Assembly: GCA_045641625.1 (NCBI GenBank)
Contig: JAZUHH010000027.1
Coordinates: 1,582 to 65,581, forward strand
Length of the DNA: 64,000 bases
Origin: Paludibacteraceae bacterium
Lineage (GTDB): Bacteria > Bacteroidota > Bacteroidia > Bacteroidales > Paludibacteraceae
Direction: 5' to 3'
Positions 6,065 through 29,800 of this stretch are shown piece by piece. The notes below the pieces were generated by a model. The model searched no databases. It worked only from the letters and a program-made list of their open reading frames with translations, and was not told the DNA's origin. Each line of letters starts with the position of its first letter. Position 1 is the first letter of the stretch. Both the position numbers and the translations under genes were made by a program.

Positions 6065-6229
6065 AATTTTTGCAAAAGTAATTATTTTAATTCAATTTTT
6101 GTCCTTTTTATGAAAAAGTTTGTTCGATAAACACTGTATTGTTACAAGTCGGGCAACTTGGCCCGTATAGGTCCGGATGTTGCCCGCAGTTTTGAAATTG
6201 AGCGAAAAAGCATTAACTTTGTACCCATT

Positions 6230-8182: not shown

Positions 8183-8251
8183 TGAATAAAGCAAAGGCGA
8201 GACACTTGCCTGTGCCTCGCCAATTCTATCTGTCTTTGGGGTGTCCGTTAC

Positions 8252-9346
8252 CTATTTCAGCCTGCTCTGGTACTTCTTGCTGTCTCCCAGGTACACGTTC
8301 AGCAGACCTACGCTGATGATGCTGACTCCGAACGCAAGAAGCGGGAATATACTGCAGAACGAGTCATACAGTCCGTGTCCAAGTGCAGGGATGCTTATGG
8401 CAAGGAAATACAGACCCTTGCGGTACCTTGGGTAAAGATGTGCAAAGCTGAGGAAGAAACCTGCCACAGCTGTCCAGATGGCATGTATGAACGGCAGGGT
8501 GGTCATTCGCGCTATGTTCAGATAGTATGCGTCCGCATAGCCCTGCTGTGTGTTCACGGTAAGCTGGTACTGGACTCCTTCGAATACTCCGAAGGCAAGT
8601 CCCGATATGAGTCCGTAGAACACCATAGTCTGGGGAATCATCGGCTCCTTTGCCCTCTTGAGAAGGAACAGGAGGACAAGCATCTTGCCCAGCTCCTCTG
8701 TGAAACCTACGCCAAAGACGAAACCTATGATGTTGCTCAACAGTCCGTTGCTCTGGGTGAGCATATAGAATATGTTCAAGTTGGGCAGTCCAAGCAGATC
8801 CCATATAACAATGATGACAAGCTGTGTCAGAAAGAATATCTTGAGTGTCGTGCTTGTCTTCACCTGCTTGGTCTTGTAGAACGAATAGAAGAACATCGCC
8901 CACATGCTCGAGAAGTATAGCGATATGGCATAGAACCTAAGGAAATCGCTTGGAATATATGTCACCCCTATGAGCGGGAACATACCGATTATTGTGAGCA
9001 GAAGCAGTCTTTTGTCCTTGCTCCAGGTCTCCTTCTCCAACAGCTCCTTGGGGAACAGCAGATCCTTGCCCAAACGTGATATTTGAGAGAAAATGCTGCC
9101 TTCTGACTCGACCTTGAATGGTATGTTGTTGTACTTAAGCACACTGCTTACAGTCTCGTATCTGGTGTTCTCGTCTATGTTGTCCGTGTTGGTAACCTTG
9201 TCGCAGGCCAGAGTCTTGCCTATGGTAGTCAGGCTTCTCAGGTCTTCGAGTGAGTATGGCCCGTAAGATTTGCCGTTTCTGACCACGAACAGACGGTTAG
9301 TGTTGCAGATGTCTATATTCTCGACATCGTTGCCTAATAATCCCAT
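8252..9346 (-). CDS. PrsW-family intramembrane protease with N-terminal GYF_2-like domain
   Basis: N-terminus FVVRNGKSYGPYSLEDLRSL is GYF_2/DUF4339-like. Multi-pass membrane core carries PrsW-type motifs GFTEELGK, AFGVFEG, HAIWTAVAG and HGLYD. The ATG at 9344-9346 leaves a 4-nt gap to the stop of the upstream gene (9351-9353). Confidence 0.7.
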   Translation of the reverse strand: MGLLGNDVENIDICNTNRLFVVRNGKSYGPYSLEDLRSLTTIGKTLACDKVTNTDNIDENTRYETVSSVLKYNNIPFKVESEGSIFSQISRLGKDLLFPKELLEKETWSKDKRLLLLTIIGMFPLIGVTYIPSDFLRFYAISLYFSSMWAMFFYSFYKTKQVKTSTTLKIFFLTQLVIIVIWDLLGLPNLNIFYMLTQSNGLLSNIIGFVFGVGFTEELGKMLVLLFLLKRAKEPMIPQTMVFYGLISGLAFGVFEGVQYQLTVNTQQGYADAYYLNIARMTTLPFIHAIWTAVAGFFLSFAHLYPRYRKGLYFLAISIPALGHGLYDSFCSIFPLLAFGVSIISVGLLNVYLGDSKKYQSRLK

Positions 9347-9350
9347 AAAT

Positions 9351-12300: not shown

Positions 12301-12734
12301 TTTACAACTATGCGCACCTTGCCTATTCTGTCTCTCTTCTGGTATGTCTTTGCTTCCGGCAGCAGTGTAGTGTTCACTACGTCTGCAAAATCAATGGCAG
12401 GGACATCTCCCGTAACGGCTATTATGAATCGTGCCAGAGCTACGGCATCGGTCTTTACCTCCTCGGCAGTCAGCTGCAATTTCTTGCCAAGCACTTTGGT
12501 AGCATGACTCTCGAACACATGTATCGCAGACTTGATTTCGGGAGTTATAGTGTCGTATTTGTCAAATAAGTGCCTTATTCTTGTGTATCTGTTGGCGAAA
12601 CCAATTTTTTCGTCTGCTGTGACGCTGTCAATGAATTCGCAGAACAACCCCTTGAAACGCTTGTATTTAGTCTTGATGTCCCTTATATTGAAGTAAAAGG
12701 AGGAAAGGTTTTCAAGGAATTGGTTTTTTAACAT
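9351..12734 (-). CDS. Dna2-like fusion: PD-(D/E)XK (Cas4/RecB-type) nuclease domain plus Upf1-like SF1 helicase (1127 aa)
   Basis: Nuclease motifs GRLDFL .. IVIELKSGK .. QAFLYQ. Helicase motifs GPPGTGKTS, IIDEASQILEP, MIGDHKQLPAVV, GRMHRDV, VERYQGSQRDIIIYS and LNVALTRARKQMFITG. Confidence 0.75.
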   Translation of the reverse strand: MLKNQFLENLSSFYFNIRDIKTKYKRFKGLFCEFIDSVTADEKIGFANRYTRIRHLFDKYDTITPEIKSAIHVFESHATKVLGKKLQLTAEEVKTDAVALARFIIAVTGDVPAIDFADVVNTTLLPEAKTYQKRDRIGKVRIVVNELTETHLCGYEAGNGSNTYIKARHGVKGINDLMAITPNNFRKGAIVNLIDCTVESNGDLTPQLFILYPDYLLDCSSLAESCNDNMMSPFTYLYNKVKKSTVTRHILLGDMANYYHDAFVYNGRNVEFKQTTNDAFCTMPIELTACKDLEKPLSSKETNNFFEEAMSQFNNIGNVVNNVFPTLGIDKGCATLEPAFICEDIGMQGRLDFLQRKDGNNIVIELKSGKGPFMSNDGVCTNHRSQAFLYQIMVQKILGIPFHELGTYIFYSKYNVNTLRKTYPSMDALRAILNLRNRIVSMEYELASITTAQATKKIFDYIQPQYIINNYEKNRSSILFKDYIIPQIEEFRMRMATLPPLDQKYIYSFANFICREQLYSKVGGGMIADNIGGFASCWNSTLDEKMESGAILFDLEITNREEGPNGTDRVTFKFSPLHRDYIANFRKGDMAILYIRNSDEDLVTNKEVLKCSIAELTDKEVTVALRQAQKNQSALDSRNRYAIEPDSTDSANALLRSVFALSDTDVNRRDIILGKTLPTSRPATLKTEIQDENVKRIVTKAKGADDYFLLVGPPGTGKTSVTLRDMVREFHAEGNNILLLAYTNRAVDEICASVKSAGLDFIRIGGPLTCAPEYHENIIYNRIKDCKDRRSVEAIIKGTRIYIATTTTMNRRSPLFDIVTFDVAIIDEASQILEPQICGILSYLNCNCELAIKKFIMIGDHKQLPAVVVQSENESRVPEEDSDLYEIGLRDRRNSLFERLFTLNRQAGNDTAFDMLTHQGRMHRDVAQFANEMFYAGRLKCVPLDHQECGLDYTDFNASDPVETMIATRRIAFIPSTTSQDLDNIKTNPSEADIVVNIVIKAMSLMQANRMPFTEKSIGVITTYRSQIALIRSKLEQYRIDTSKITIDTVERYQGSQRDIIIYSVCANEDRQMRQICNIMQEDGAFIDRKLNVALTRARKQMFITGCSEILMKNNIYAKLINFINKK

Positions 12735-12801
12735 TTTTTTACAAATGAGTTAAAGTTATATTAAAAAAATATTTTTGTGCAGATAATCAAAAACGATTAC
12801 C

Positions 12802-12809
12802 TATATTTG
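12802..12809 (+). promoter_or_regulatory. Bacteroidetes -7 promoter box (TAnnTTTG)
   Basis: tatatttg, 81 nt upstream of the ATG at 12890. Confidence 0.45.
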
Positions 12810-12889
12810 CATCCAGAACAAGGGAACAACAATTACAGTTGACCTCAGTTCTGCAAAAATAGTATAAATGAATTTAAATTGTTAGAGAT

Positions 12890-13714
12890 ATGAAAACTTT
12901 TGTAAGAAAAATAACAGCATTGCTTGCAACAGCAATCGTTAGCATAGGAATGGTAGCAGCACAGCAGAGAGGTAGAGGTGGAAACAATGGTGGTTCACGT
13001 CAAGCTGCAACACAACAGTCGGCTCCAAGAGCTTCGGTTTCACATCAGTCGTCTTCTTCACATCAGTCAGCACCTTCGCGTCAGGCATCAGCTGCTCCTC
13101 AGCGTCAGGCTTCTGCTTCAAGACCTGCTTCGTCAGCTCCTCAGCGCAGTGGTTCACGTCCGGTTCAAAATACTCAGCACAGCAACCATCACGGTAATGT
13201 AAAGTATAACGGATCTGCCCACAACGCTCATGTTCATCATGATCACCATGCACCGGCTCATCACGATCATCACGCACCGGTTCACCATGATCCACATCAT
13301 CACCATGCACCGGTTCACCATGATCCACATCATCATCATGCACCTGTTCACCACCATCATCATCACGCACCTGCTCACCTACACTACCACGAGCATCCGG
13401 TTTACCACCGCGCTTTGCCGGCAGCTTACTTGCCATTCTATGTAGGTGATGTTACATACTACTACGCAGGCGGCACATACTACGTTTACGATCCAGTTTA
13501 CGGATACGAGGTTGTAGGTTGCCCAACTAACGTGTTCTTGCCTTACTTGCCAGCAGGTTCAAGAATGGTGACATACAGAGGCACTCTATACTACGAGTAC
13601 GATGGTATGTGGATGTTGCCAGTTGAAGGCCAGTATATGATTGTAGAGCGCCCTGTTTCAAGAGTGAGCATCTCAATCCCAATGCCTTCATTCAGATTCT
13701 ACGCAAGTTTCTAA
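12890..13714 (+). CDS. Secreted histidine-repeat protein with Tyr/Gly-rich C-terminal domain
   Basis: Signal peptide MKTFVRKITALLATAIVSIGMVAAQ. S/A/Q-rich linker. His-rich repeats HHDHHAPAHHDHHAPVHHDPHHHHAPVHHDPHHHHAPVHHHHHHAPAH. C-terminus YYYAGGTYYVYDPVYGYEVV..YYEYDGMWMLPVEGQYMIVERP. Confidence 0.7.
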   Translation: MKTFVRKITALLATAIVSIGMVAAQQRGRGGNNGGSRQAATQQSAPRASVSHQSSSSHQSAPSRQASAAPQRQASASRPASSAPQRSGSRPVQNTQHSNHHGNVKYNGSAHNAHVHHDHHAPAHHDHHAPVHHDPHHHHAPVHHDPHHHHAPVHHHHHHAPAHLHYHEHPVYHRALPAAYLPFYVGDVTYYYAGGTYYVYDPVYGYEVVGCPTNVFLPYLPAGSRMVTYRGTLYYEYDGMWMLPVEGQYMIVERPVSRVSISIPMPSFRFYASF

Positions 13715-17639: not shown

Positions 17640-17663
17640 AAGTATTTCTATACTAATCATAGG

Positions 17664-17695
17664 AAGGGAGGCGAAAGTCTCCCTTTTGTTTTTTT
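17664..17695 (+). terminator. Rho-independent terminator of glmM
   Basis: aagggag-gcgaaagt-ctccctt hairpin followed by ttgttttttt. Confidence 0.7.
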
Positions 17696-17965
17696 GAGAG
17701 AGAGCAACTTGCAGTCACAAAAACAAATCATATTTTTTATATGGTATTGTCTTTCGACAGGGAAAGTAGAATTGTATTCACGGGTTGTCTTGGCGTTGAG
17801 CCAGACACAGCGTACATTTTCAAACTCTATGTTTATATTGGTAAAATATAATCTTCAAATTGTATGCTTATAAGCAATTAGGTCGAATTATAATTTATTG
17901 GCGGGCAACTGATGTGTCTGTGGTTGAAATTGTTGGAAAATATGTGCCAAAAAATTTGGAAATGA

Positions 17966-17980
17966 TTTTTTTTTTTTTTT
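17966..17980. repeat. T15 homopolymer in the AT-rich leader of the vWA-PP2C-kinase island
   Basis: Counted directly: 15 consecutive T at 17966-17980, about 285 nt upstream of the vWA ATG. Confidence 0.95.
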
Positions 17981-18264
17981 GATTTTTGCAAGGTGTTTGC
18001 AGGACATTTTAGAAGCTTTTTTAGTTTAAACGCTTCTGAACATTTTTGTTTTATTTATTAATATTAGAAATTAAACGAATATTGGCAGACTCAAGTAGTA
18101 GTACGGGGCAGATTAGTTGCATAAAGTTCGGTAGCGATTTCAATGTGGTGTACTAATTTTTCTTGAAGTGATTTGCATACATATTGAATTACCAGTATTC
18201 TTGCGTTGTGAGTCAAATACCTATTGAATTCCAAAAGAGTTTAAAAAAATCAAATAATATAAAT

Positions 18265-18555
18265 ATGGCAGATTATTCTTTAATGTGGGGCAGAAAAACT
18301 CCTGGTCATTTAGTATATTTAATTGACCAATCAGGCTCTATGGGTGGCAGTAACTCCATAAAAGCAGCGGAAGCTGTTCATTCTGCAATAATGGACACAT
18401 TTATCGGATGTGTAAGAGGTAATGAAGTTCTTAACAGAGTTTATATTACAGTCATTGGATATGGCAATAGTGACGGTGTTTCTATAATTAGAGAAGGATG
18501 GATGACCGATTATGTGGCAGATCTTAAATTGTGCAAAAAAATGGCACAACAATAA
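18265..18555 (+). CDS. TerY-like von Willebrand factor A (vWA) protein, N-terminal fragment (reading frame breaks at an A7 tract)
   Basis: ATG at 18265 (MADYSLMWGRKTPGHLVYLIDQSGSMGG carries the DxSxS part of the MIDAS). The frame ends at ..DLKLCKKMAQQ*, just after the A7 run at 18535-18541. Confidence 0.8.
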   Translation: MADYSLMWGRKTPGHLVYLIDQSGSMGGSNSIKAAEAVHSAIMDTFIGCVRGNEVLNRVYITVIGYGNSDGVSIIREGWMTDYVADLKLCKKMAQQ

Positions 18556-19040
18556 TTGATCCGATAGCCCATGGCGGAACTCCAATGGCAGAAGCATTCA
18601 CATTGGCAAAAGAATGTTTAGCAAACTGGATTCAAGCTCGCCAAGAGATTGCTGACGAAGACACACAAGCAGGCATACCTGCTCCCATTGTAATAAACAT
18701 TACTGATGGTGAACCTGACAATCAATATGAAGCAGTGTGCGAAGCTCAGGAGCTCACAAGTCTGAATACTTCAGACGGGAATGTCCTGCTGTTTAACATC
18801 CACATGGATGAAGCACCTTCAGCAAATGAAGTTATGTTTCCATCGGATCCAGACTCATTAAACGAGTCTGGCAGATTCTTGTTTGACATTTCAAGTGAAA
18901 TGACCGATGAATTTATAAAAGTAGCAAAACAACAACATCTGGAAGGTATTATTCCGGGATCTAAGGGATTCGTTGTTAATGCGAAGGGAGATACACTAGT
19001 AAGATTTGTTAGATTTGGTTCTTCTTGTTCACAGGGATGA
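18540..19040 (+). CDS. TerY-like vWA protein, C-terminal fragment (-1 frame relative to the N-terminal fragment)
   Basis: Continues the vWA fold: NGTTIIDPIAHGGTPMAEAF (MIDAS Thr) and PAPIVINITDGEPDN (MIDAS Asp). With one extra A in the tract the two parts join as ..LCKKNGTTIIDP... Confidence 0.8.
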   Translation, partial: NGTTIIDPIAHGGTPMAEAFTLAKECLANWIQARQEIADEDTQAGIPAPIVINITDGEPDNQYEAVCEAQELTSLNTSDGNVLLFNIHMDEAPSANEVMFPSDPDSLNESGRFLFDISSEMTDEFIKVAKQQHLEGIIPGSKGFVVNAKGDTLVRFVRFGSSCSQG

Positions 19041-20188
19041 TAGTTAAATATTCAGCATTTATTGTGCCACATGGTGGCGAGGGATATAATAATTGCCAAG
19101 ACCGTTTTCTTATCAATAAGGATACATGCAGTTTTGGTGTGGCAGATGGTGTGTCTCAATCTTTTTCCCCTTCAACTTGGGCCGAGATTGTGTGCGAAAA
19201 TTTTGTCAATAATCCTGAGGATTTTGTTTCCGAAGATGAAACAAAATGGAAGAATCAAAATATAGCTTGTTCTCATTTTGCCTCAAAAACACAGCAAGAA
19301 CAAAGTGAACTGTCGGAGAATGAGAAATTCTTCTTTGAACTTCAAAAGGAAAAATATGAATTTGCTGCTTGCACATTTGTTGGGCTTCACATAAGTCATA
19401 AAGACTGCAAAGTTATTTGTATTGGTGATAGTTATTTGGTCGCTTGCAATAATGGGAAGATTATAGATACTGTTCCTACAGTGAAGAACAGTGGGTTTGA
19501 TAATTTCCCTGACTATCTCTCTAGCAATGGGAAAAACAATGGAAAAATAAGAGTAAAAGATATTGATTTTGACATTGTGACTTCATTGTTTATTATGACA
19601 GACGCATTAGCAGAATGGTTATTGACAGGATCAGAGGAGGGGAAAATAGGTCAATTAATGAATATAAATACCCATGAAGATTTTGTAGCATTTGTTGAGG
19701 AAGAAAGAATCTCTCATCGACTAAAAGATGATGATACAACATTGGTAAGAATTTGTATTGAAAAAGATTTTTCCGAGCAGATAGTTTTTGTCCCTGAAGC
19801 TATTGATGATATAAATAAACTCAAAAAAGATGATATTTCTCTTGTAACCGTTGAAACTCCAGAAAAAGAAGAACCGAAAAAAGTAGTACGCGAACCTGAA
19901 GTAAAATCCAACAGCGGTGATACTATTTTGCAGGAAGCTCAAAATCTTTGCGCTAAATATAAGAAGGATGGTAAAAAGTTTTTTTCTGAAAGTGATGTAG
20001 ATTCTGCGATGGACATCCTTGGAAAATTAGTTATGAGGTTAAAGTATAGTAGTAGTTCTTGTAATAATAATCATATATCTGAAAAACAGTTTAATACTCT
20101 TTCTCAGAAATATAATGAGCTTTTACAAAAAAATAAAAATCTACTTTCTGATATTGAAAAACTTACGAAAAAAAGATTTTTCTGGTAA
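19037..20188 (+). CDS. PP2C-family Ser/Thr phosphatase with coiled-coil C-terminal extension
   Basis: Motifs FGVADGVSQS, VICIGDSYLV, LFIMTDALAEW and KDDDTTLVRI. The ATG at 19037 overlaps the vWA stop (ATGA). Confidence 0.8.
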   Translation: MIVKYSAFIVPHGGEGYNNCQDRFLINKDTCSFGVADGVSQSFSPSTWAEIVCENFVNNPEDFVSEDETKWKNQNIACSHFASKTQQEQSELSENEKFFFELQKEKYEFAACTFVGLHISHKDCKVICIGDSYLVACNNGKIIDTVPTVKNSGFDNFPDYLSSNGKNNGKIRVKDIDFDIVTSLFIMTDALAEWLLTGSEEGKIGQLMNINTHEDFVAFVEEERISHRLKDDDTTLVRICIEKDFSEQIVFVPEAIDDINKLKKDDISLVTVETPEKEEPKKVVREPEVKSNSGDTILQEAQNLCAKYKKDGKKFFSESDVDSAMDILGKLVMRLKYSSSSCNNNHISEKQFNTLSQKYNELLQKNKNLLSDIEKLTKKRFFW

Positions 20189-20209
20189 AAATAATTAACT
20201 GGCTCTGTT

Positions 20210-21295
20210 ATGTCATTACCTACAAAAGATCAATTAAGCACAGCAATAGAAAACCCAAAAAATATCTTGGATCCAGATCTTGATGGTTATTCTGCCATAG
20301 ACGGATTGGTCGGTCCAGAATCCTATAGTGGAGGTTTTTGCATTGTCTATCCAGTTACTAATGGTTCAAAGAAGTATGCGTTTAGACTATGGCATACAGA
20401 GATCGAAGGCATAAAAGATAGACTGAAAAAGATATCAACGTATCTAAGTTCTGCAAATATTTCATATTTTGTAGAATTTGAATATGTAGATGATGCATTA
20501 AGAGTCCCAGGATATAATGGTGTAGCTCAGGTTGTGGACGCTGTTCGAATGGAATGGATAAATGGACTCAATTTAGTAGAATACATTAACTCCATTGTTA
20601 CCAATCTTAATCTTACAAATCAAGAAAAGAAGCAGAACCTTAATAAATTAGCTGATAATTTTTTGAAAATGGTGTCATATCTCCATGAAAAAAAAGTATC
20701 TCATGGTGATTTGCAGCATGGTAACATAATAATACTTGATTCCGGTGAAATAAAACTCGTTGACTACGATTCGGTTTATGTCCCATTGTTTACCGATGAG
20801 CTACAAGTCACTTCCGGTTTGGCGACTTATCAGCATCCGAACAGAAAAGGAACAAAAAGATTGGCATCAGCAGAAGATGATTATTTCTCAGAGTTGATAA
20901 TTTATCTTTCAATTTTATGTATAGCAGAAGATTTTGCATTATGGACCCCGATGGATGCTCGTAATGAACATGTATTATTGTTTTCAGACAGTGATTACAA
21001 AGATATAGAAAGTAGCTCTATTTATAAAACTGCGAATTCTTTCAATAACAGCAAAATTAAACTTTTACTCAGTAGATTGGTAGACTATTTGGTGGTATGT
21101 GATTTTGATGTATTTGAACCTTTAGAATGTATCCTAAAGAATGCTTACACAATTCAACCAGAATCCCTTACTTTGGACGATGAAGACAAAGAACTAACAA
21201 ACATAGAGCGTTCAAATATAAAGACACAAAAAGTTACGGTTCAAATTCAACATGTTGACAAAGATCTTGCTAAACAACGTTATAAGAAGAATTAG
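20210..21295 (+). CDS. Atypical protein kinase (HGDLxxxN type), paralog 1
   Basis: Catalytic loop VSHGDLQHGNIIIL and metal-binding loop IKLVDYDSVY. Gly-loop-like SGGFCIVYP followed by KKYAFRLW. Confidence 0.7.
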   Translation: MSLPTKDQLSTAIENPKNILDPDLDGYSAIDGLVGPESYSGGFCIVYPVTNGSKKYAFRLWHTEIEGIKDRLKKISTYLSSANISYFVEFEYVDDALRVPGYNGVAQVVDAVRMEWINGLNLVEYINSIVTNLNLTNQEKKQNLNKLADNFLKMVSYLHEKKVSHGDLQHGNIIILDSGEIKLVDYDSVYVPLFTDELQVTSGLATYQHPNRKGTKRLASAEDDYFSELIIYLSILCIAEDFALWTPMDARNEHVLLFSDSDYKDIESSSIYKTANSFNNSKIKLLLSRLVDYLVVCDFDVFEPLECILKNAYTIQPESLTLDDEDKELTNIERSNIKTQKVTVQIQHVDKDLAKQRYKKN

Positions 21296-21297
21296 CT

Positions 21298-23196
21298 ATG
21301 TTGCCAACAAAGGATGAAATATCAAGAGCAATAGAAGATGTCAATAACATTTCTATTCCTCAGTTGCATGGCTATCAACCGTGTGAAGGCATAATCGGTC
21401 CAGAAAGTTATGCGGGAGGCTTTTGTATCGTTTTCCCTTTTACAAACGGGTATGACAAAAAAGCAGTTAGAGTTTGGCACCAAGAAATAGATAGAGGACA
21501 GGATAGGTATAGTTGTATTGCAAACGATTTTTCAAAAACTTCATCTAGGTTCTTATGTGATTTACGTTATTATCCATCTTCGCTCAGCGTGTTCAATAAT
21601 AAGGTTGACGTTGTCGTTATGGATTGGGTAAAAGGTAAACCATTAAAAGAATATATACAGTCAATTATTGATAATGGAAATGACACAAGTGTTCTTTTGT
21701 CAGACTTGGCGGAAGAGGCCAAAAACATGTTTAGGGAATTGCATTCCTTAAATTTCTCTCATGGAGATTTACAACATGATAACTTGATAATAACAGAATA
21801 TGGAAGAATAAAGTTGGTTGATTACGATTCTTTTTACACGCCATCATTAGCTTCAGGATTCAGACAAACAACCACTGGCTATAATGGGTATCAACATCCT
21901 TCCCGTTTTTTAGGTAATATAGATAGTAACGAAAGAATCGACTATTTTTCAGAACTTATTATTTATTTGTCTCTTAGAGCTTTAGCAAATGATATAAGTT
22001 TATGGAACTTTGCAAAGGATTCTGATTATTCATTCCTTTTTGATTCAGGAGATTTTCAAAATATAGAAAAATCTCCTTTATATAATTCTATATATTCAAT
22101 GGGAGAAGAAATGCAGATTCTTCTTCGAATATTAAAAGAATACTTAGAAGAAACAGACATTAACAATTTAGAATGTTTTGAAGAACTTTACAATAGATAC
22201 GTAACACCTCCAACCATTAAATTATTCAACCATTCACGTGATAGTTCAATTTATATTGATGATGAAATTGAATTAAAGTGGGATGTAGAAGCATATTCAA
22301 AATTGACTGTAAATGGAAAAGATGTTACTAACAAGAAATCATACAAACTAAAAGCGAGTACAATAACCCAATTTGAGTTAGTTGCTTCAAATGGAATAAA
22401 AGAAGCAAGAAGTAATTTGTTCATAGATATATTTAAGAATCCGACAGTAAAGTTTAAGGCTAGTAAAACCAAATTAAGGCAAGGAGGGAATGAGGGTGTT
22501 AGATTTACATGGATTATTCAAGATGCTGTTTCCGCAAAACTTTTTGCAAATGAAGAGCAGTGTGAAGAAATTGGGTTGACAGGAGAAAAAACATTTACTC
22601 CTAATGTTGACACGGTTTATAAACTTGTAGTTGTTGGTAATGATGGTAATAGAACATTTGAGAAATCTTTGCCGATAAAGGTGATACCAGAAGCAGAGGT
22701 TGAATTATATGTTTCTAAGAAATTTACAATTCCTGGGGTTCCTGTAATAGCCACATGGAGTGTTAAGAATGCGGTAAATGTGACTTTAAAAGTTGAAGCA
22801 GAAACGAATTATTCAAAAAATGTTCCATTTGAAGGCCAATATGAGATATTGGTGGAGAATCCTACTGTCGTATCTTTGGATGTTGAGGATGCTTTTGGTA
22901 CCAAAACCGTAAGACAGGTAATTAACATGTTGCCTCTTCCTGTGATGAAGTTGCATGCTAGTCCACCAGTTATAAATAGCAGTATTTCTCTTTCTCAGAA
23001 AGTAACACCTTTGGATATTGCATTCTGTAAAACGCCTGAATTGCCAAATGTTCAGGTTAAGGCTCCATTTATCAAAACGGTGAAATTAAATTTTGAATTA
23101 CCACATTTCATAGATTTGAAACTCCCTAAGATAACATTATGGGGAAGGATTAAAAATGCTTTTAATCGTGCATTTACAAAGTTAATAACAACATAA
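21298..23196 (+). CDS. Atypical protein kinase (HGDLxxxN type), paralog 2, fused to about 3 Ig-like beta-sandwich repeats
   Basis: FSHGDLQHDNLIIT and IKLVDYDSFY. The N-terminus is collinear with paralog 1 (LPTKD.IS.AIE...GPESY.GGFCIV.P.TNG). The C-terminal half holds about three ~85-aa repeats (e.g. IELKWDVEAYSKLTVNG.., VRFTWIIQDAVSAKLF.., VIATWSVKNAVNVTLKV..). No TM segment is evident. Confidence 0.7.
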   Translation: MLPTKDEISRAIEDVNNISIPQLHGYQPCEGIIGPESYAGGFCIVFPFTNGYDKKAVRVWHQEIDRGQDRYSCIANDFSKTSSRFLCDLRYYPSSLSVFNNKVDVVVMDWVKGKPLKEYIQSIIDNGNDTSVLLSDLAEEAKNMFRELHSLNFSHGDLQHDNLIITEYGRIKLVDYDSFYTPSLASGFRQTTTGYNGYQHPSRFLGNIDSNERIDYFSELIIYLSLRALANDISLWNFAKDSDYSFLFDSGDFQNIEKSPLYNSIYSMGEEMQILLRILKEYLEETDINNLECFEELYNRYVTPPTIKLFNHSRDSSIYIDDEIELKWDVEAYSKLTVNGKDVTNKKSYKLKASTITQFELVASNGIKEARSNLFIDIFKNPTVKFKASKTKLRQGGNEGVRFTWIIQDAVSAKLFANEEQCEEIGLTGEKTFTPNVDTVYKLVVVGNDGNRTFEKSLPIKVIPEAEVELYVSKKFTIPGVPVIATWSVKNAVNVTLKVEAETNYSKNVPFEGQYEILVENPTVVSLDVEDAFGTKTVRQVINMLPLPVMKLHASPPVINSSISLSQKVTPLDIAFCKTPELPNVQVKAPFIKTVKLNFELPHFIDLKLPKITLWGRIKNAFNRAFTKLITT

Positions 23197-23215
23197 AGAA
23201 CATATAAATATTACA

Positions 23216-24559
23216 ATGAGTGAATTAAATAAAAAAGAGAACGAAAAAGAAGTCGGCTTCATGTGGAACAACCTAATAAGTGAAATCCTATGGATTTGCG
23301 CTGGTGTCAATAGACCTGTATTAAGGCAATGTCCTACAGAATGGGCTAAATATGCGGGAATAGGTGGAACTATTCTATTTACTGCGCTTATGGCTATGCT
23401 TTCTGGAGGCTATGCACTATATACTGTTTTTCATAATGAAACTTCAGCAATATTCTTTGGTGTTTTTTGGGGATTACTTATTTTTAATCTTGATCGTTTC
23501 ATAGTAAATACTATGTATTCAGATGGTAAGGCAACTATCAGTTGGATGGAACTTGCGTCTGGAATGCCAAGAATCATTATGGCGATATTTCTTGGTTTAG
23601 TGATTTCTACTCCTCTAGAATTAAAAATATTTGAGGATAAAATCAATTGGCAAATTGAGCAGGATCAAGTTGCCGCAATGGAGGAAATCAATAATGGCAT
23701 GATGTCATATCAAGAGAAAAAAAATCAATTAGTTGCAAGAAAAGATTCTATAAATAGGTTGATTGCTGGAGAAGGTCCTGCTCTTAAAACTATTTATGAT
23801 GATGAAATTAAGAGACAAGAGATAAGAGTTGATGAGGCTCGTAATGCGTTTGAAAAAGAAACATACGGGAGAGGAAATACGCATACGGCTGGTTATGGTC
23901 CAGTTGCAAAACAGAGAGAAAAAGCTCTTAATGATGAGTTATCCAGATTGGACGAACTAATTGTTAAGCAGCACGAAGCACGAGATCAAGCCATCAAAAT
24001 CGGCCAATCTTCTAGAGGAAAATGGCAAATCGAAGTTCTAAATTATGAATCTCAGATAGCAAGAATTGATTCTATTGTAAGTACGACTGCTGATAAGCAG
24101 ACTATTGCAGCTAAATCTTTGGATGGATTTACTGCTAGATATCATGCGTTAAGTGAGATTACACAATCAGATAGTGCGCTATCCTTGGCAAGAATTATTA
24201 TTTCATTACTCTTTATTATCATTGAGACTGCTCCTACATTCTTTAAAATGATGTTGGAAGATGGTCCGTATGACGATATGCTTCGAGCTGAAGAGTATAG
24301 GATAAAAATATTGGCAGATAAGAGAATTTCTGATATAAATGATGAAGTGAATACTGCTGTTTCTATTTCTTCCGAGAGAAATAAAAATCAAATTCAACAA
24401 CAGTTACTAGCCAATCAGGCTTTGCTTGAACAATTATCTAAGGCTCAGTCTGAAGTTTTGGCGGAGGCAATTGATTTGTGGAAACAAAAGGAACTTGAAA
24501 AAGTGAGGGAAAATCCAGAATCATATATTTCTATGGAGCGTGGTTCGGAAGATTTATAA
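23216..24559 (+). CDS. DUF4407-like multi-pass membrane protein with long central coiled coil
   Basis: N-terminus ICAGVNRPVLRQCPTEWAKYAGIGGTILFTALMAMLSGGYAL and FGVFWGLLIFNLDRFIV match my memory of DUF4407. There are three N-terminal TM helices, about 180 aa of coiled coil, then a fourth TM helix (IIISLLFIIIETAPTFF). Confidence 0.65.
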   Translation: MSELNKKENEKEVGFMWNNLISEILWICAGVNRPVLRQCPTEWAKYAGIGGTILFTALMAMLSGGYALYTVFHNETSAIFFGVFWGLLIFNLDRFIVNTMYSDGKATISWMELASGMPRIIMAIFLGLVISTPLELKIFEDKINWQIEQDQVAAMEEINNGMMSYQEKKNQLVARKDSINRLIAGEGPALKTIYDDEIKRQEIRVDEARNAFEKETYGRGNTHTAGYGPVAKQREKALNDELSRLDELIVKQHEARDQAIKIGQSSRGKWQIEVLNYESQIARIDSIVSTTADKQTIAAKSLDGFTARYHALSEITQSDSALSLARIIISLLFIIIETAPTFFKMMLEDGPYDDMLRAEEYRIKILADKRISDINDEVNTAVSISSERNKNQIQQQLLANQALLEQLSKAQSEVLAEAIDLWKQKELEKVRENPESYISMERGSEDL

Positions 24560-24640
24560 TGGCCAAATGAGATAGTAACTTTTGCTCTATCTTCTATAGA
24601 GTAGATTTTGGGTATAGCTGTCCGGTATAAGTTTTATTTG

Positions 24641-24668
24641 AAAAAAAAAATTTGACCTATAGGTCAAA
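24641..24668. promoter_or_regulatory. A10 run followed by a perfect 18-bp palindrome (TTTGACCTATAGGTCAAA)
   Basis: A10 at 24641-24650 and the palindrome at 24651-24668, about 90 nt after the DUF4407 stop at the right edge of the AT-rich island. Confidence 0.6.
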
Positions 24669-24766
24669 AATGTTTGTGTGATTGGTATCAGACATTTTGC
24701 TGCCACTGGTTGTTATATCTCCCATAAATTCTTTATCTTCGCATCCGAAAAATAATTGAATGTAAT

Positions 24767-25051
24767 ATGCAAGAGATACTAATGACTCCGGATGTGTGTA
24801 TGCGATTCCTTGTGTGGTCGTACTACTACCACGATGTGCGTCCGGAAAAGAGAGTGAGCTACAAGGCTTGCGGAAAGTTTTCCGATGCTGATGCAGAGCA
24901 TTTGGACGAGTTGAAGGATATGCTCTTCAAATGCTTCGAAGAGGCTTCCGTGAACAGGGCATGCGACAAGTTCCATAAGGCCAGGCTGCTTAACGAACCG
25001 TGTCCGTTCCCTCAGTCAGAACTGGACAAGATGTTTGCAAGCGAGAAATAG
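24767..25051 (+). CDS. Hypothetical small Cys-containing protein (94 aa)
   Basis: ATG ORF with native-looking composition and a terminator hairpin downstream. I recognise no motif. Confidence 0.5.
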   Translation: MQEILMTPDVCMRFLVWSYYYHDVRPEKRVSYKACGKFSDADAEHLDELKDMLFKCFEEASVNRACDKFHKARLLNEPCPFPQSELDKMFASEK

Positions 25052-25068
25052 TCATGATGACACAAAAT

Positions 25069-25095
25069 AAGGGAGGTTCTGCCTCCCTTTTTTTG
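25069..25095. terminator. Hairpin terminator between convergent genes
   Basis: gggagg-ttct-gcctccc followed by ttttttt. Confidence 0.65.
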
Positions 25096-25116
25096 TCTGT
25101 TGTTAGATGTTGGTGG

Positions 25117-26253
25117 CTAGAACTCCTCCAGTTCCTCCATGTCCCTCATGATCTTTACCTCCCTGAATCTTTCCATTTCATCCATGCTGTAAATCAGTTC
25201 GAACTTGAAGCCGATGTTTTCATTGTACAGCAAATTAAGTTCGTCATCTATAGTGATTAGGCTAAGTACAAAACCTATATCTTTTCTGGAAAGCCTCCTA
25301 TGGTTGTACCTCTTGATTATCTTAAATTTTGTATAGTAATCATATTCTTCGAAATTGCGCAAGCCTCCGAAATCTTCGTTTCCCAGCTGTCCATTGAGGC
25401 GAAATTCAGCTCCTATTTTTTCTTTGTTGCCCATATTGTCCATTAAATAATAGCCAAGAAGACTTTGTCCCATAGCCTTTTCCAGATAGCCGTCAGTAAG
25501 CTTTGATCCTTTAAAGATTTGGTATTTATATTTGCAGTGTGGGAACTTTATGGTGCTGTATTTTTCCCTTGTTTTGAATATCCTTCCGACATTAAATTTC
25601 GTCAGTTGATTCTTGATGCCGTTTGCATCTTTGGGTACAACATATTTCAATGTATTTTCTATTAGTTCATCAATTTTATCTATGTCTTTATAATCTGGCT
25701 CAAGCCAAACCTCTCCGCTTACTACATAGTTTCCCCCGTTGTCCGACACTTTTGCGTTCAGATTCTTGATTGTGGGCTTGTACACTGTCTTGAGCATTTC
25801 CCCGATCTGAATGGCAAGGTTGTCCTGAACTTTTATTGCATTTTGAGCAAAAATTTTGTTCAGTTTTACCTGTTGGACGATTAGATTGCCATCCAATTCG
25901 CATGAAATCTCGTGCTGGGTAGCCCAAACCTTGAGCGGTTCCAACGACACAGTCGATTCGACAGTCTGTGAATAGAGTCCGTTCTCGTCCTTGACCGGAG
26001 AGCCTATCTCGGTGTATTTCTTTATGCTTCCCGACTTTATCGAGACAAGCTCATCCCTGACAATGCTGTCGTTACTGATGATTGTGCTTTCCGACACAAA
26101 GCAACCGAAGGCTTGTTCTATTGCCGTTTTCAGTGCGTTGGTTGTCGCTTCCTGCGGAGTCCTGCCTGTTCCGACCGTAACAAGCGTAACATTCTTTGAA
26201 TATGTGTTGAAACATATCAGAATGTAAAGGCATAGAAAAATTATTTTCCTCAT
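25117..26253 (-). CDS. Hypothetical secreted/lipoprotein (378 aa), N-terminal LPP20-like segment
   Basis: Signal peptide MRKIIFLCLYILICFNTYS. VTVGTGRTPQEATTNALKTAIEQAFGCFVSE resembles LPP20-type lipoprotein domains (weak recollection). Confidence 0.6.
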   Translation of the reverse strand: MRKIIFLCLYILICFNTYSKNVTLVTVGTGRTPQEATTNALKTAIEQAFGCFVSESTIISNDSIVRDELVSIKSGSIKKYTEIGSPVKDENGLYSQTVESTVSLEPLKVWATQHEISCELDGNLIVQQVKLNKIFAQNAIKVQDNLAIQIGEMLKTVYKPTIKNLNAKVSDNGGNYVVSGEVWLEPDYKDIDKIDELIENTLKYVVPKDANGIKNQLTKFNVGRIFKTREKYSTIKFPHCKYKYQIFKGSKLTDGYLEKAMGQSLLGYYLMDNMGNKEKIGAEFRLNGQLGNEDFGGLRNFEEYDYYTKFKIIKRYNHRRLSRKDIGFVLSLITIDDELNLLYNENIGFKFELIYSMDEMERFREVKIMRDMEELEEF

Positions 26254-26355
26254 GACATTATATATATTAAGTTATCTTTTTGGCAAGAGCAATAAAGAAA
26301 CGATATATGTGTTCTTTATTTTGCTATTTTGCAAAGTGAAAAGTCCATTTATCCC

Positions 26356-26455
26356 AATGTCATATGACATTTGGGCTGAGAAGTTCTCCTCAATAGAAAT
26401 GTCATATGACATTTGGGCTGAGGAGTTCTCCTTAATGAAAATGTCATATGACATT
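26356..26455. repeat. 42-bp tandem repeat (2.4 copies), each unit starting with the 16-bp palindrome AATGTCATATGACATT
   Basis: Palindromes at 26356-26371, 26398-26413 and 26440-26455, exactly 42 bp apart. Units 1 and 2 differ at 4 of 42 positions. Confidence 0.95.
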
Positions 26456-26462
26456 CAGTAAA

Positions 26463-26957
26463 TCATTCGTTCCCCATCTGTTTATTGTCTTCATCTAACG
26501 TCTTGAAATAGACAAACACCCTTTTTGCGTTGTCGTCAGTGAAGCATGAAAGCAGTTCAAGGCTTTTTACATAGCCGACCGAGTATTCATAGTTCTTCTC
26601 TGTGATTTCTGCTTCAGTATTTCCGTCAGCGCGATCAGTTGTGCGGATTACAGTCTCCGAATTTATGGTCGAGCCGTTAAAGAATCTGCCTGCCATGGAC
26701 ATCGCCCTTACTGACGCTATCTTGTTCATCGTGATTTCTCCGCCATTGTTGATGTATTTCTCGGGGTCCAGAACAACAACGGACAACAGGTATCTGCTGT
26801 CATAGTCATCGACAACCTTGACGCCTGAAAATGCGCCGTTGCGATATAGCCTCTCGACAAAGTTCGCGAGGTTTGTCTTGTCCTTGTTAATGATCTGCCC
26901 CGATGCTGACAAAGCGAGCATGGAAGCCGCAAGTGTAAATAGAAATCTTCCTACCAT
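26463..26957 (-). CDS. Hypothetical secreted protein (164 aa)
   Basis: Signal peptide MVGRFLFTLAASMLALSASGQ. Its ATG (26955-26957) overlaps the upstream gene's stop (26951-26953) by 7 nt. Confidence 0.6.
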   Translation of the reverse strand: MVGRFLFTLAASMLALSASGQIINKDKTNLANFVERLYRNGAFSGVKVVDDYDSRYLLSVVVLDPEKYINNGGEITMNKIASVRAMSMAGRFFNGSTINSETVIRTTDRADGNTEAEITEKNYEYSVGYVKSLELLSCFTDDNAKRVFVYFKTLDEDNKQMGNE

Positions 26958-29215: not shown

Positions 29216-29800
29216 ATGAGTACAAATTTTGTTATGCAGAAGCTTCGTTACAAAGAAGATGCTCTGGCTCCTGTCATCAGCCCAGAAACGATCAGTTTCC
29301 ACTATGGAAAACATTTACAGACCTATGTGAACAACTTGAACAACCTGGTCGCAGGTACAGAGTTCGAGAATGCCTCGCTTGAAGAGATTGCCGCCAAGGC
29401 TCAAGGCGGAATCGGCAACAACGCGGGACAGGTGTTGAACCACACTCTCTATTTCGAGCAGCTCACTCCGAATCCGGAGCGTACTGAACCCCAAGGCAAG
29501 CTATTGGATGCCATTAACCAAAGCTTCGGATCTTTCGCCGAGATGCAGAAGAAGATGAATGCTTCTGCCGCAACTCTGTTCGGTAGCGGCTGGGCATGGC
29601 TCTGTGCTGACGCGAACGGCAAGCTCAGTGTCGAGCAGATGGCCAATGCAGACAATCCTTTGCGACATGGATTGAGCCCCATTCTGACTTTTGATGTCTG
29701 GGAGCATGCCTATTATCTGGACTACCAGAACCGCAGGGCAGACTATCTGACTGCATTGTGGGGCATTATTGACTGGAATGTCATAGAAAGCAGGTACTAA
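29216..29800 (+). CDS. sodB: Fe/Mn superoxide dismutase
   Basis: Motifs FHYGKHLQTYVNNLN, GSGWAWL and DVWEHAYYLDYQNRR. Confidence 0.9.
   Translation: MSTNFVMQKLRYKEDALAPVISPETISFHYGKHLQTYVNNLNNLVAGTEFENASLEEIAAKAQGGIGNNAGQVLNHTLYFEQLTPNPERTEPQGKLLDAINQSFGSFAEMQKKMNASAATLFGSGWAWLCADANGKLSVEQMANADNPLRHGLSPILTFDVWEHAYYLDYQNRRADYLTALWGIIDWNVIESRY

Follow-up and report, generated by a model that had tools for sequence, protein, structure and literature searches.

Anantharaman, Iyer and Aravind reportedly defined in 2012, by comparative genomics, a 'TerY-phosphorylation triad' composed of a vWA protein (TerY), a PP2C phosphatase and a Ser/Thr kinase. Such triads were first proposed to be metal-sensing, phosphorylation-dependent switches, and the C-terminus of the classical kinase, where an OB fold or zinc ribbon lies, was read as a ligand-binding element. 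According to a secondary source, TerY-P is an anti-phage system, active against T7-like phages (Gao et al. 2020), as a first, sequence-only reading of the DNA discussed here had noted; defence by the classical triad requires neither a separate effector nor a membrane protein.

The locus described here lies in the window, by which we mean the whole 64,000-nucleotide stretch of a Paludibacteraceae contig that was analysed. It shares with the TerY-P of Gao et al. 2020 the same three families, in the same order, in a tight operon, and it strongly matches the three corresponding PADLOC profiles (TerY, PP2C and STK_OB). It is also, as classical triads are, a small cassette lacking mobility genes. 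The window cassette differs in that its kinase is duplicated (K1 and K2), neither kinase has the C-terminal OB-fold half of STK_OB, in K2 three Ig-like domains and a tail stand in its place, and a DUF4407 membrane protein is invariably attached. This five-gene form is known from sequence alone.

Genes of the cassette

The five genes—vWA, PP2C, K1, K2 and DUF4407—are co-directional and closely packed (Table 1). The vWA stop and PP2C start codons overlap (ATGA), and gaps of 21, 2 and 19 nt precede K1, K2 and the DUF4407 gene, respectively.

Table 1. Features of the island and its borders (window coordinates)
Feature	Position	Strand	Basis
glmM intrinsic terminator	17662-17695	+	Terminator scan: 11-bp stem, then T run; native, within syntenic block
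Island leader, presumed promoter region	17931-18264	+	No ORF of at least 60 aa; T15 run 17966-17980
TerY-like vWA gene, frameshifted	18265-19040	+	PADLOC TerY; ORFs 18265-18555 and 18531-19040
PP2C-family Ser/Thr phosphatase	19037-20188	+	Pfam PP2C_2, PADLOC PP2C
Kinase K1	20210-21295	+	PADLOC STK_OB, Pfam Pkinase; short tail, no extra domain
K2, whole gene	21298-23196	+	Kinase domain, three Ig-like domains and tail
K2 kinase domain, residues 1-302	21298-22203	+	PADLOC STK_OB 4e-38; AF2 pLDDT 84.7
K2 Ig-like beta-sandwich domains, residues 306-544	22213-22929	+	AF2 model; no Pfam or PADLOC family
K2 tail	22930-23196	+	AF2 model; motif conservation in alignment A1
DUF4407 membrane protein	23216-24559	+	Pfam PF14362 1.4e-72; AF2 model pLDDT 77
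A10 run and perfect 18-nt palindrome TTTGACCTATAGGTCAAA	24641-24668		Terminator scan; sequence read directly
Native 94-aa gene, outside island	24767-25051	+	Gene order in L084-L087; synteny back at 24720

Aligned with 13 homologues, the vWA protein has an intact MIDAS (DQSGS…GGTPM…NITDGEP). Once repaired, it matches PADLOC TerY at 1.2e-30, against 1.2e-5 and 5.9e-25 for its two halves; the Pfam VWA_2 match (1.4e-3) lies under that family's cut-off. The repair is needed because a 1-nt deficit at an A7 run (18535–18541) breaks the reading frame and splits the ORFs at 18531–18555. The orthologue in the closest cassette, L170, is intact (258 aa) and collinear across the junction, and DNA comparison shows the loss of one base, seen relative to another locus, L006, as well. 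Programmed slippage is unlikely, since the A-run is not conserved among homologues, and vWA genes are split in two further loci (L032 and L066), too. Unless the missing base is an assembly error, the copy in the window is probably disabled or decaying. That it is a remnant without present function we rate a serious possibility, a little short of even, and one compatible with every other reading considered below. Against it, none of the remaining four genes is shortened and their catalytic motifs are preserved, A-runs are able to revert, and a homopolymer such as the affected one is where sequencing and assembly errors most often fall, the source being apparently a single draft contig.

The phosphatase consists of a PP2C domain (~residues 1–245) and a 140-residue C-terminal extension. 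It matches Pfam PP2C_2 at 6.6e-8 (32.8 bits, where the family's cut-off is 24) and PADLOC PP2C at 6.7e-31, over profile positions 17–241 of 242. K1 has a eukaryote-like kinase domain of the TerY-P type (STK_OB 4.6e-48) that covers only positions 1–268 of the 562 in the profile, and a Pfam Pkinase match (1.2e-9) above cut-off. The K2 kinase domain takes the protein-kinase fold when its AF2 model is searched with Foldseek (e.g. IRAK4 and mycobacterial PknA/B, E ~3e-9). The OB fold is absent from both, their match to STK_OB being limited to its kinase part. Both kinases look active, judging from their motifs: HGDLQHGN and DYDS in K1 are kept in at least 90% of the 37 orthologues, and HGDLQ..N and DYD in K2 are conserved across the orthologue alignment, the shared HGDLQHxN and DYD likewise standing in at least 90%.

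Beyond its kinase domain, K2 folds in the AF2 model into three Ig-like domains (residues 306–375, 383–463 and 467–544; pLDDT mostly 85–94), followed by a Pro-rich 'MLPLPxxK' linker predicted to be disordered (551–609) and a C-terminal helix (614–631). Profile searches match this C-terminal module to no Pfam family and no PADLOC profile; the Ig module is nevertheless conserved, with >1000 homologues and 513 cluster representatives.

The DUF4407 protein has four highly conserved hydrophobic helices (~residues 40–72, 75–99, 110–138 and 320–346 in alignment A3), a variable coiled-coil hairpin (140–318) and a conserved long C-terminal helix (351–432). Polar residues are conserved inside the nearly invariant helices: N91, D93, R94, E135, E337 and K344. 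Neither sequence nor fold searches found a solved relative, profile searches matched it to no PADLOC or PHROG model, and comparison with pore-formers gave no significant structural match (best Foldseek E 0.025, TM-scores ≤0.3).

The gene assignments made from the letters alone—a TerY-like vWA protein with a complete MIDAS, a PP2C phosphatase, two paralogous kinases, one of them fused to Ig repeats, and a DUF4407 protein with four membrane helices and a coiled coil, all tightly packed—agree with these searches.

Borders and insertion site

Four contigs from related Paludibacteraceae (L084–L087) have the 94-aa gene directly after glmM: an empty site. They align with the window at ~86% identity up to 17930 and again from 24720, and these blastn synteny breaks, with the junction alignment, set the island at 17931–24719 (6.79 kb), the insertion having replaced ~28 nt of the ancestral spacer between glmM and the 94-aa gene. 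G+C is 0.342 in the island, 0.479 in the left flank and 0.444 in the right. The sequence-only reading had drawn the island at 17696–24700. Its low-G+C block stands, with a right limit of 24719, but its left border does not: the related contigs stay syntenic to 17930, which puts the border 235 nt further right and makes 17696–17930 native intergenic DNA. G+C alone would misplace the right border, since native DNA from 24720 to 26500 is also low (~0.38–0.40).

The ORF list, tRNA scan and repeat search found no integrase ORF, tRNA, or terminal or flanking repeats at the island, and a motif scan found no strict Bacteroidota TAnnTTTG promoter in the leader. The A10 run and palindrome near the 3' end may form a terminator, one whose structure suits the minus strand better. 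The horizontal acquisition, the upstream glmM terminator and the lack of integrase and direct repeats that the sequence-only reading reported all hold, and the empty site that it proposed looking for exists in related genomes. With empty sites in relatives and contrasting base composition, the island is a self-contained, horizontally gained 6.8-kb cassette that went into the spacer after glmM in a Paludibacteraceae-like genome.

Distribution and variants

Thirty-seven loci, the window included, have the order vWA–PP2C–K1–K2–DUF4407 or, where the contig is truncated, its kinase–kinase–DUF4407 core. Clustering by K2 at 90% identity sorts them into 32 groups, and the core recurs in 31 other distinct loci besides the window, most of them carrying all five genes. 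The complete set occurs in 16 species-representative Bacteroidota genomes and MAGs and in 19 metagenomic loci; kinase–kinase–DUF4407 alone is found in four truncated metagenomic loci, and the 37 clustered loci, counting the window, come from among these. DUF4407 and a second kinase thus do co-occur with vWA–PP2C–kinase triads, a tabulation the sequence-only reading had proposed. It had also suggested an undescribed extended variant. The conserved five-gene loci bear out an extended variant, and the searchable literature holds no published description of the extended form, an earlier mention, in Anantharaman et al. 2012 for example, being possible. Every kinase–kinase–DUF4407 locus with a named source is from Bacteroidota; non-Bacteroidota loci have the classical triad only, with a single long kinase. 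As a derivative of TerY-P with five genes, the cassette is so far known, among loci of named source, only from Bacteroidota.

No flanking genes are common to different cassette loci, and the cassette's own partners vary. In L023, the place that DUF4407 would have goes to a TIR protein, two genes downstream of K2; in L028, a different membrane protein with weak SieB similarity immediately follows K2, in the place of DUF4407. Other variants carry an additional PLD/DrmC-like nuclease (PLDc_2 6e-27; DrmC 2.5e-11), and others combine with SIR2 and ADP-ribosylglycohydrolase genes. Judging from the TIR, membrane-protein and nuclease variants, and from the conserved polar residues within the DUF4407 helices, the position after K2 has the look of one for effectors.

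Coupling of K2 to DUF4407

The K2 C-terminal module proves to be a stand-alone gene as well, and by its position one tightly coupled to DUF4407. Its profile matches 27 non-kinase proteins (E down to 1e-96), and in 27 of 27 the gene lies directly upstream of a DUF4407 gene, ending between −52 and +34 nt from its start. The two genes overlap or abut, as in L002–L005, L098, L107 and L112, whose module proteins of ~340 aa match the profile at E 1e-73 to 1e-96; the DUF4407 proteins of L002–L005 are 47% identical to that of the window. Since the module, where it is a separate gene, is always found just upstream of DUF4407, K2 is the predicted physical link that ties the phospho-signalling triad to the membrane protein.

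Sequence divergence points the same way. Between the window and L170, K2 residues 1–350 are 84–96% identical, residues 401–632 only 22–36%, and DUF4407 44%; by this pattern, the two cassettes differ by a block swap of distal K2 and DUF4407. Across 29 loci, DUF4407 divergence follows that of the K2 C-terminal module (partial correlation 0.36; the observed value was never reached in 2000 Mantel permutations) and does not track the K2 kinase domain (0.08).

Proposed function and alternatives

On balance, and by a modest degree, we favour a TerY-P-derived phospho-switch in which DUF4407, coupled to K2, would be the membrane effector of abortive infection. At rest, PP2C would oppose K1 and K2 so that a target, perhaps the vWA protein, the two kinases or DUF4407, stays unphosphorylated. 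The MIDAS-bearing vWA protein would act as sensor of, or scaffold for, the infection cue. Once triggered, net phosphorylation would be relayed through the K2 module docked on DUF4407, which may then oligomerise through its coiled coils and compromise the inner membrane, so that the infected cell halts growth or dies before the phage cycle is complete. The sequence-only reading had suggested DUF4407 as membrane effector; what the data show is its tight coupling to the K2 module, and the pair may serve as output or as input. Against this scheme, the classical triad needs no separate effector, DUF4407 has no significant pore-former match, distant DUF4407 genes occur without TerY-P, and the vWA gene is frameshifted. 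The neighbourhoods of those distant DUF4407 genes are syntenic and have no TerY-P genes close by, and Lak megaphages have a stand-alone copy, which argues that the family is not exclusively one of host suicide effectors.

The direction of signalling may be reversed, instead. The K2-module/DUF4407 pair could be output or input, the coupling data fitting both, and as an input it would be a membrane-embedded sensor of envelope perturbation or phage DNA entry, activating K2 and K1 to phosphorylate phage or host proteins, as other kinase-based defences do, until PP2C resets the system. Classical TerY-P works without a membrane protein; kinase activity can therefore suffice as output, and DUF4407 may be input or anchor. 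The Ig module and DUF4407 hold the position of the classical OB fold or zinc ribbon, which has been read as a ligand-binding element, and the fastest-evolving parts, the central DUF4407 coiled coil and distal K2 module (mean pairwise identity is 27% in the K2 C-terminal module and 46% in the kinase domains), would suit a surface that meets a phage factor undergoing rapid change. Some variants, moreover, add a PLD nuclease or TIR while DUF4407 is kept or replaced. We nonetheless consider reversal unlikely: the TIR of L023 and the SieB-like protein of L028 fit an output slot better, and the best-conserved parts of DUF4407, its membrane helices with buried polar residues, resemble a channel or effector core more than they do a variable receptor.

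It is improbable that the cassette is a mobile envelope- or metal-stress module with DUF4407 in phospho-controlled membrane remodelling or repair—despite the metal-sensing role originally proposed for the triads, the TerY-P-free DUF4407 neighbourhoods, and the dynamin-like GTPases, membrane-remodelling proteins, that adjoin Ig-module/DUF4407 pairs downstream in L001 and upstream in L002–L005—because its distribution is patchy and its contexts unrelated, close relatives lack it, it is mosaic through block swap, all three triad proteins match PADLOC TerY-P profiles, and TIR, PLD/DrmC-like, SIR2 and ADP-ribosylglycohydrolase partners mark conflict systems rather than housekeeping stress responses.

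Comparison with known systems

The transmembrane effectors of CBASS, Pycsar and Thoeris-type systems, and SieB-like proteins, are membrane-disrupting effectors of abortive infection. DUF4407, too, is a small membrane protein with several passes, encoded last in a signalling operon, but the likeness is one of possible mode of action rather than membership: sequence, fold and profile searches detected no relationship, although in sister loci TIR, PLD and SieB-like proteins replace or accompany DUF4407. DUF4407 would be activated by phosphorylation or docking, whereas CBASS, Pycsar and Thoeris-type effectors respond to a nucleotide second messenger and are without its long coiled coils.

The stand-alone Ig-module/DUF4407 pairs of other conflict islands are likewise undescribed. 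They comprise the same two-component unit as the window cassette, but without kinase fusion, vWA or PP2C. Their neighbours include dynamin-like GTPases, a ThiF/E1-like enzyme, an acyl-carrier protein, a ClpB-like AAA+ protein, a kinase-AAA fusion, tyrosine/dual-specificity phosphatases and SIR2.

Similar in plan is a published system in which a vWA–PP2C–kinase triad is likewise an accessory signalling module, with a C-terminal adaptor on the kinase, attached to a separate effector complex. In that system a zinc ribbon serves as adaptor, and the partners are coiled-coil nuclease and helicase proteins predicted to target RNA. ORF analysis found no McrBC, HEPN or helicase genes in our island, which has an Ig-repeat module for its adaptor and a membrane protein for its partner.

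The five-gene cassette is conserved in Bacteroidota

ORF calling recovers five same-strand genes in the island downstream of glmM, at the coordinates proposed in the sequence-only reading (Table) and with the ATGA overlap of the vWA and PP2C genes and the gaps of 21, 2 and 19 nt described there; its vWA, PP2C, kinase and DUF4407 assignments are all backed by PADLOC and Pfam profile searches. The PADLOC TerY profile matches the two halves of the vWA protein at 1.2e-5 and 5.9e-25, and the repaired protein at 1.2e-30. The MIDAS residues (DxSxS, T and D) line up with those of 13 homologues. Since the Pfam VWA_2 match is weak (1.4e-3), it is the PADLOC profile and these aligned residues that carry the TerY assignment. 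The PP2C protein covers nearly the whole PADLOC PP2C profile (6.7e-31) and scores 32.8 bits with Pfam PP2C_2, where the cut-off is 24. Both kinases, K1 and K2, match STK_OB, the PADLOC profile of the TerY-P kinase with its OB fold (4.6e-48 and 4e-38, respectively), and Pfam Pkinase (1.2e-9 for K1; 2e-6, slightly under the cut-off, for K2). The fifth protein matches Pfam DUF4407 (PF14362) at 1.4e-72 (244.9 bits; cut-off 31.3), over profile positions 2–296 of 297. PHROGs has no family for DUF4407, vWA or PP2C, and present PADLOC profiles would tag just three or four of the five genes.

Genomes were scanned with an alignment of K2 homologues, one genome per species, and their ORFs were labelled by iterated HMMs derived from the proteins of the window. 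The complete order vWA–PP2C–K1–K2–DUF4407 was found at 15 scanned loci, to which locus L001 adds a sixteenth; K1 is about 330–375 aa long in complete loci, and K2 about 470–650 aa. Wherever a complete locus has a named source, that source belongs to the Bacteroidota: Bacteroides, Parabacteroides, Paraprevotella, Xylanibacter brevis ATCC 19188, Paludibacteraceae, Porphyromonadaceae, Chitinophaga terrae, Lewinellaceae, Arenibacter, Bizionia, Flavobacterium ichthyis and Seonamhaeicola. A metagenome scan seeded on DUF4407 contributed another 19 complete loci and four truncated by contig ends. Thirty-seven loci with the kinase–kinase–DUF4407 core, the window included, were clustered and fall into 32 groups at 90% K2 identity. 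Of the 31 distinct loci besides the window, the majority have all five genes, and in a few the contig ends leave only the core. The co-occurrence of a second kinase and DUF4407 with the vWA–PP2C–kinase genes, which the sequence-only reading had proposed to tabulate, is therefore conserved. The classical three-gene form, with one long kinase, was seen in non-Bacteroidota loci only. Because the genes that flank the cassette differ from locus to locus, the five travel as one unit. Bacteroidales of gut and rumen, a group in which phage defence has received little study, commonly carry the system.

The cassette also varies. In L001 an ADP-ribosylglycohydrolase gene separates vWA from PP2C, and two dynamin-like GTPase genes follow DUF4407. 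Five Flavobacteriia/Chitinophagia loci (L013, L015, L017, L025 and L029) carry a PLD-family gene between the kinase genes; its product, of about 189 aa, matches PLDc_2 at 6e-27 and PADLOC DrmC at 2.5e-11. L010, L013 and L025 encode, just before DUF4407, a multi-pass membrane protein (about 200 aa), and a duplicated vWA gene is present in L089, L090 and L095. Two loci are without DUF4407: in L023 the genes after K2 encode a TPR and a TIR protein (TIR_2, 1.3e-9), in that order, and in L028 K2 is followed by another membrane protein with weak similarity to SieB. Four five-gene loci that are otherwise unrelated have a gene for a small membrane protein, DUF6804 (4.9e-35), downstream of DUF4407; the window lacks it.

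Coordinates of the cassette, of other features of the window and of features in comparison loci
Feature	Sequence	Coordinates	Strand	Remark
Island	window	17931–24719		6.79 kb
vWA	window	18265–19040	+	two ORFs, overlap 18531–18555
A7 run	window	18535–18541		near the end of vWA ORF 1 and the start of ORF 2
PP2C	window	19037–20188	+	ORF call
K1	window	20210–21295	+	ORF call
K2	window	21298–23196	+	ORF call
DUF4407	window	23216–24559	+	ORF call
PrsW-family gene between two helicase genes	window	6158–12734		L084 20–6519
G+C dip	window	12500–12999		to 0.35
Break in synteny with relatives	window	26255–26482		
Tandem repeat	window	26356–26455		42-nt unit, 2.4 copies, 93% matching
Superoxide dismutase-like ORF	window	29216–29800	+	194 aa
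ADP-ribosylglycohydrolase	L001	5297–6124		
Two dynamin-like GTPases	L001	11441–15121		
PLD-family gene	L013	3328–3897		
TPR and TIR proteins	L023	13054–15603		
Membrane protein after K2	L028	3231–4310		
DUF6804 protein	L010	14990–15277		
DUF6804 protein	L014	15371–15673		
DUF6804 protein	L015	14262–14561		
DUF6804 protein	L017	15721–16020		
Metagenomic island with Ig-module/DUF4407 pair	L002–L005	1–21362		
DUF4407, Prevotella phage Lak-B5	L168	7977–9236		MK250024.1
DUF4407, Lak-A1	L169	7959–9254		MK250016.1

Two kinases, one with an Ig-like module

The catalytic motifs HGDLQHxN and DYD are kept in at least 90% of orthologues of both kinase paralogues. K1 and K2 cover only positions 1–268 of the 562 in STK_OB, so both lack the OB fold present in the TerY-P kinase that has been tested experimentally. 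K1 ends some 80 residues past its kinase domain. In its AlphaFold2 model (mean pLDDT 84.7), K2 consists of a kinase domain (residues 1–302), which has a eukaryote-like kinase fold by Foldseek, three beta-sandwich, Ig-like domains (306–375, 383–463 and 467–544), a disordered Pro-rich stretch (551–609) and a terminal helix (614–631). The Ig-like module corresponds to no Pfam family, and neither it nor DUF4407 has a profile match in PADLOC. Among 1.84 billion cluster representatives it has 513 relatives at E ≤1e-3, and 147 at ≤1e-10. Lengths of about 620–650 aa among these fit the kinase-fused form, and lengths of about 335–370 aa a stand-alone form; the giant multi-repeat proteins that also appear have only the repeat unit in common with it.

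The Ig module and DUF4407 are an obligate pair

Where DUF4407 has no adjoining TerY-P module, a gene for a protein of about 340 aa lies directly upstream. A profile restricted to the C-terminal columns of the K2 alignment has 27 non-kinase matches, with E-values down to 1e-96, and every one of these 27 stand-alone module genes ends between –52 and +34 nt from a DUF4407 start codon. The C-terminal module of K2 and DUF4407 are thus an obligate pair, and this is our main new result. That the module is fused to the second kinase in the TerY-P version and adjacent to DUF4407 elsewhere is a classic contrast of fusion and adjacency, and argues for a physical partnership.

Comparison with L170, the closest cassette, points the same way. 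Its DNA is about 85% identical to that of the window over 18252–22518, and then similarity collapses: the K2 proteins are 84–96% identical over residues 1–350, but only 22–36% over residues 401–632, and the DUF4407 proteins only 44%. The distal part of the Ig module, together with the tail and DUF4407, has therefore been swapped as a single block. Across 29 loci, the kinase domains of K1 and K2 co-diverge (r = 0.96). Divergence of DUF4407 correlates modestly with that of the K2 module (r = 0.45, partial r = 0.36, a value reached in 0 of 2000 permutations), and is supporting evidence only, since shared ancestry inflates such statistics; it does not track the K2 kinase domain after correction for the module (partial r = 0.08).

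Among these pairs is that of a large, conserved metagenomic island (L002–L005), which also encodes dynamin-like GTPases (three), an enzyme of ThiF/E1 type, an acyl-carrier protein, an AAA+ ATPase resembling ClpB, a kinase–AAA fusion, PTP/DSP phosphatases and SIR2; the island looks like an undescribed multi-gene conflict system. DUF4407, to which no function has been assigned, and the Ig-repeat module are both placed in a conflict-system context by these findings. Tentatively, we would go further and regard the two as halves of a membrane module that has so far escaped recognition in the conflict systems of prokaryotes—portable, fast-evolving and exchanged as a block—into which TerY-P kinases might plug by fusion and dynamin/E1-like/SIR2 islands by adjacency, and of which Lak megaphages might have captured the DUF4407 half.

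What DUF4407 might do

The AlphaFold2 model of DUF4407 is all-helical (pLDDT 77). In an alignment of the family, four hydrophobic helices with conserved polar residues are almost invariant, the long C-terminal helix is conserved, and the central coiled-coil hairpin (about residues 140–318) is highly variable. No solved structure resembles the protein by sequence, and none by fold (best E 0.025); matches to AhlC, TcdA and SMC folds are weak, generic long-helix similarities on which we do not rely. A homologue search returned at least 5000 relatives. A plasmid search gave only two distant actinobacterial matches.

Homologues of DUF4407 were found in 15 of 15 records of Lak megaphages (A1, A2, B1–B9 and C1), their ORFs being read with TAG as a sense codon. 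They are 38–41% identical to the window's DUF4407 over 81–83% of its length and stand by themselves, neither an Ig module nor a vWA, PP2C or kinase gene lying within 8 kb. Exclusion, lysis and anti-defence are possible roles. As Lak megaphages infect Prevotella, their DUF4407 hints at host–phage interplay around this protein.

Secondary literature describes the classical TerY-P triad as an anti-phage system (Gao 2020), and a phospho-switch has been proposed for it; the sources consulted describe neither its trigger nor its substrate nor its killing step. We lean towards DUF4407 being the output of such a switch. The vWA/MIDAS protein, the PP2C and two active kinases would form the switch, and the Ig module and tail would dock K2 onto DUF4407; upon infection, net phosphorylation would activate DUF4407, which would damage the membrane so that the infection is aborted. 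The position of the gene at the 3' end of the operon argues for this, as do the TIR or other membrane proteins that follow K2 in sister loci, the PLD nuclease added in some, and the strong conservation of the membrane core. Arguing against it, the classical triad needs no extra effector, some DUF4407 genes lie clearly outside defence contexts, and the Lak homologue stands alone. The fastest-evolving parts are the distal module of K2 and the coiled coil at the centre of DUF4407; they could equally mark the surface of a sensor, and DUF4407 might then serve as input, a role that we consider unlikely. Least probable is that the cassette serves a non-immune stress response. Were DUF4407 a phosphorylation-gated, membrane-disrupting effector, it would be the first explicit TerY-P output and would give the kinase/phosphatase pair a substrate amenable to study.

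Origin and state of the cassette in the window

Relatives of the genome were located through the window's GlmM, which shares a 90%-identity cluster with a protein from a Paludibacteraceae MAG. In four related contigs (L084–L087), glmM is followed directly by a 94-aa gene, a 378-aa gene and then the other genes that lie downstream in the window, and here, then, is the empty site that the sequence-only reading had suggested looking for. Blastn against them gives about 86% identity up to position 17930, resuming at 24720, with about 28 nt of ancestral spacer replaced. These positions set the limits of the island, whose left border had previously been placed at 17696, 235 nt too far to the left. 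The lower G+C noticed earlier is real: 0.342 in the island, compared with 0.479 and 0.444 in the left and right flanks, and across the region values fall from about 0.48–0.50 to 0.29–0.42. Native DNA at 24720–26500, about 86% identical to the relatives, is itself rather AT-rich (0.38–0.40), so low G+C alone is no evidence of foreign origin in this genome, and composition alone would mislead on the border. With the same site empty in L084–L087 and deviant composition besides, the cassette sits on a genomic island, and was acquired horizontally. ORF, repeat and tRNA scans found no integrase, transposase, tRNA or terminal direct or inverted repeats for the island, in agreement with the earlier reading as regards integrase and direct repeats, and in the junction alignment the replaced 28 nt have only weak, imperfect similarity to the island ends. 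An RNA-family scan gave nothing close to any gathering score; sigma-70 promoter matches were no more numerous than chance (28 found, 30.7 expected), and the island leader contains no match to the strict Bacteroidota –33/–7 pattern.

The vWA gene is broken at the A7 run. In L170 the gene is intact; its 258-aa product shares about 92% identity with the repaired window protein, and the two are collinear over the junction (LKACKNNGTT in L170, LKLCKKNGTT in the window). The DNA there reads TGCAAGAACAATGGC in L170 and TGCAAAAAAATGGC in the window, which is short by one base. We considered programmed frameshifting and phase variation and rejected both; the run is missing from L006 and L170, which makes a conserved slippage site unlikely. 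The defect is either a genuine inactivating mutation or a homopolymer error in the draft assembly. That this copy of the cassette is dead is a real possibility, to our minds just short of probable.

Other differences from the relatives were noticed. The superoxide dismutase-like ORF (Fe/Mn type, its motif DVWEHAYYLDYQNRR recognised by eye) occupies a spacer of about 910 nt, compared with about 250 nt in L084 and L085, and looks like a second strain-specific insertion. Synteny is also interrupted in the vicinity of a tandem repeat that contains the palindrome ATGTCATATGACAT and sits between minus-strand genes of 378 and 164 aa. Upstream of glmM, and conserved in the relatives, a PrsW-family membrane protease gene lies between genes for two AAA_11/AAA_12 superfamily-1 helicases (about 650–674 aa and 1127 aa); this block may be another conflict-type module.

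Relation to known TerY-P systems

Judged by its PADLOC profiles, the cassette is a TerY-P relative, and we classify it as a new form of that system. The searchable literature, within which the founding comparative-genomics paper (Anantharaman et al. 2012) did not fall, yielded nothing relevant on a two-kinase/DUF4407 form of TerY, or on DUF4407 in such a role. By tying the triad, via the fused adaptor, to one particular membrane protein, the Bacteroidota variant offers a concrete, testable hypothesis for the output, or the input, of TerY-P. With TerY-P as known from Gao 2020 and PADLOC, the window shares a TerY-like vWA protein with a MIDAS (the gene being frameshifted here), a PP2C gene that overlaps its vWA neighbour by ATGA, and a Ser/Thr kinase of the TerY-P type with its catalytic motifs. 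It differs in that K1 and K2 both lack the C-terminal OB fold of the TerY-P kinase (a zinc ribbon in the CoCoNuT-linked form), and in that TerY-P is a stand-alone operon of three genes, whereas that of the window has five.
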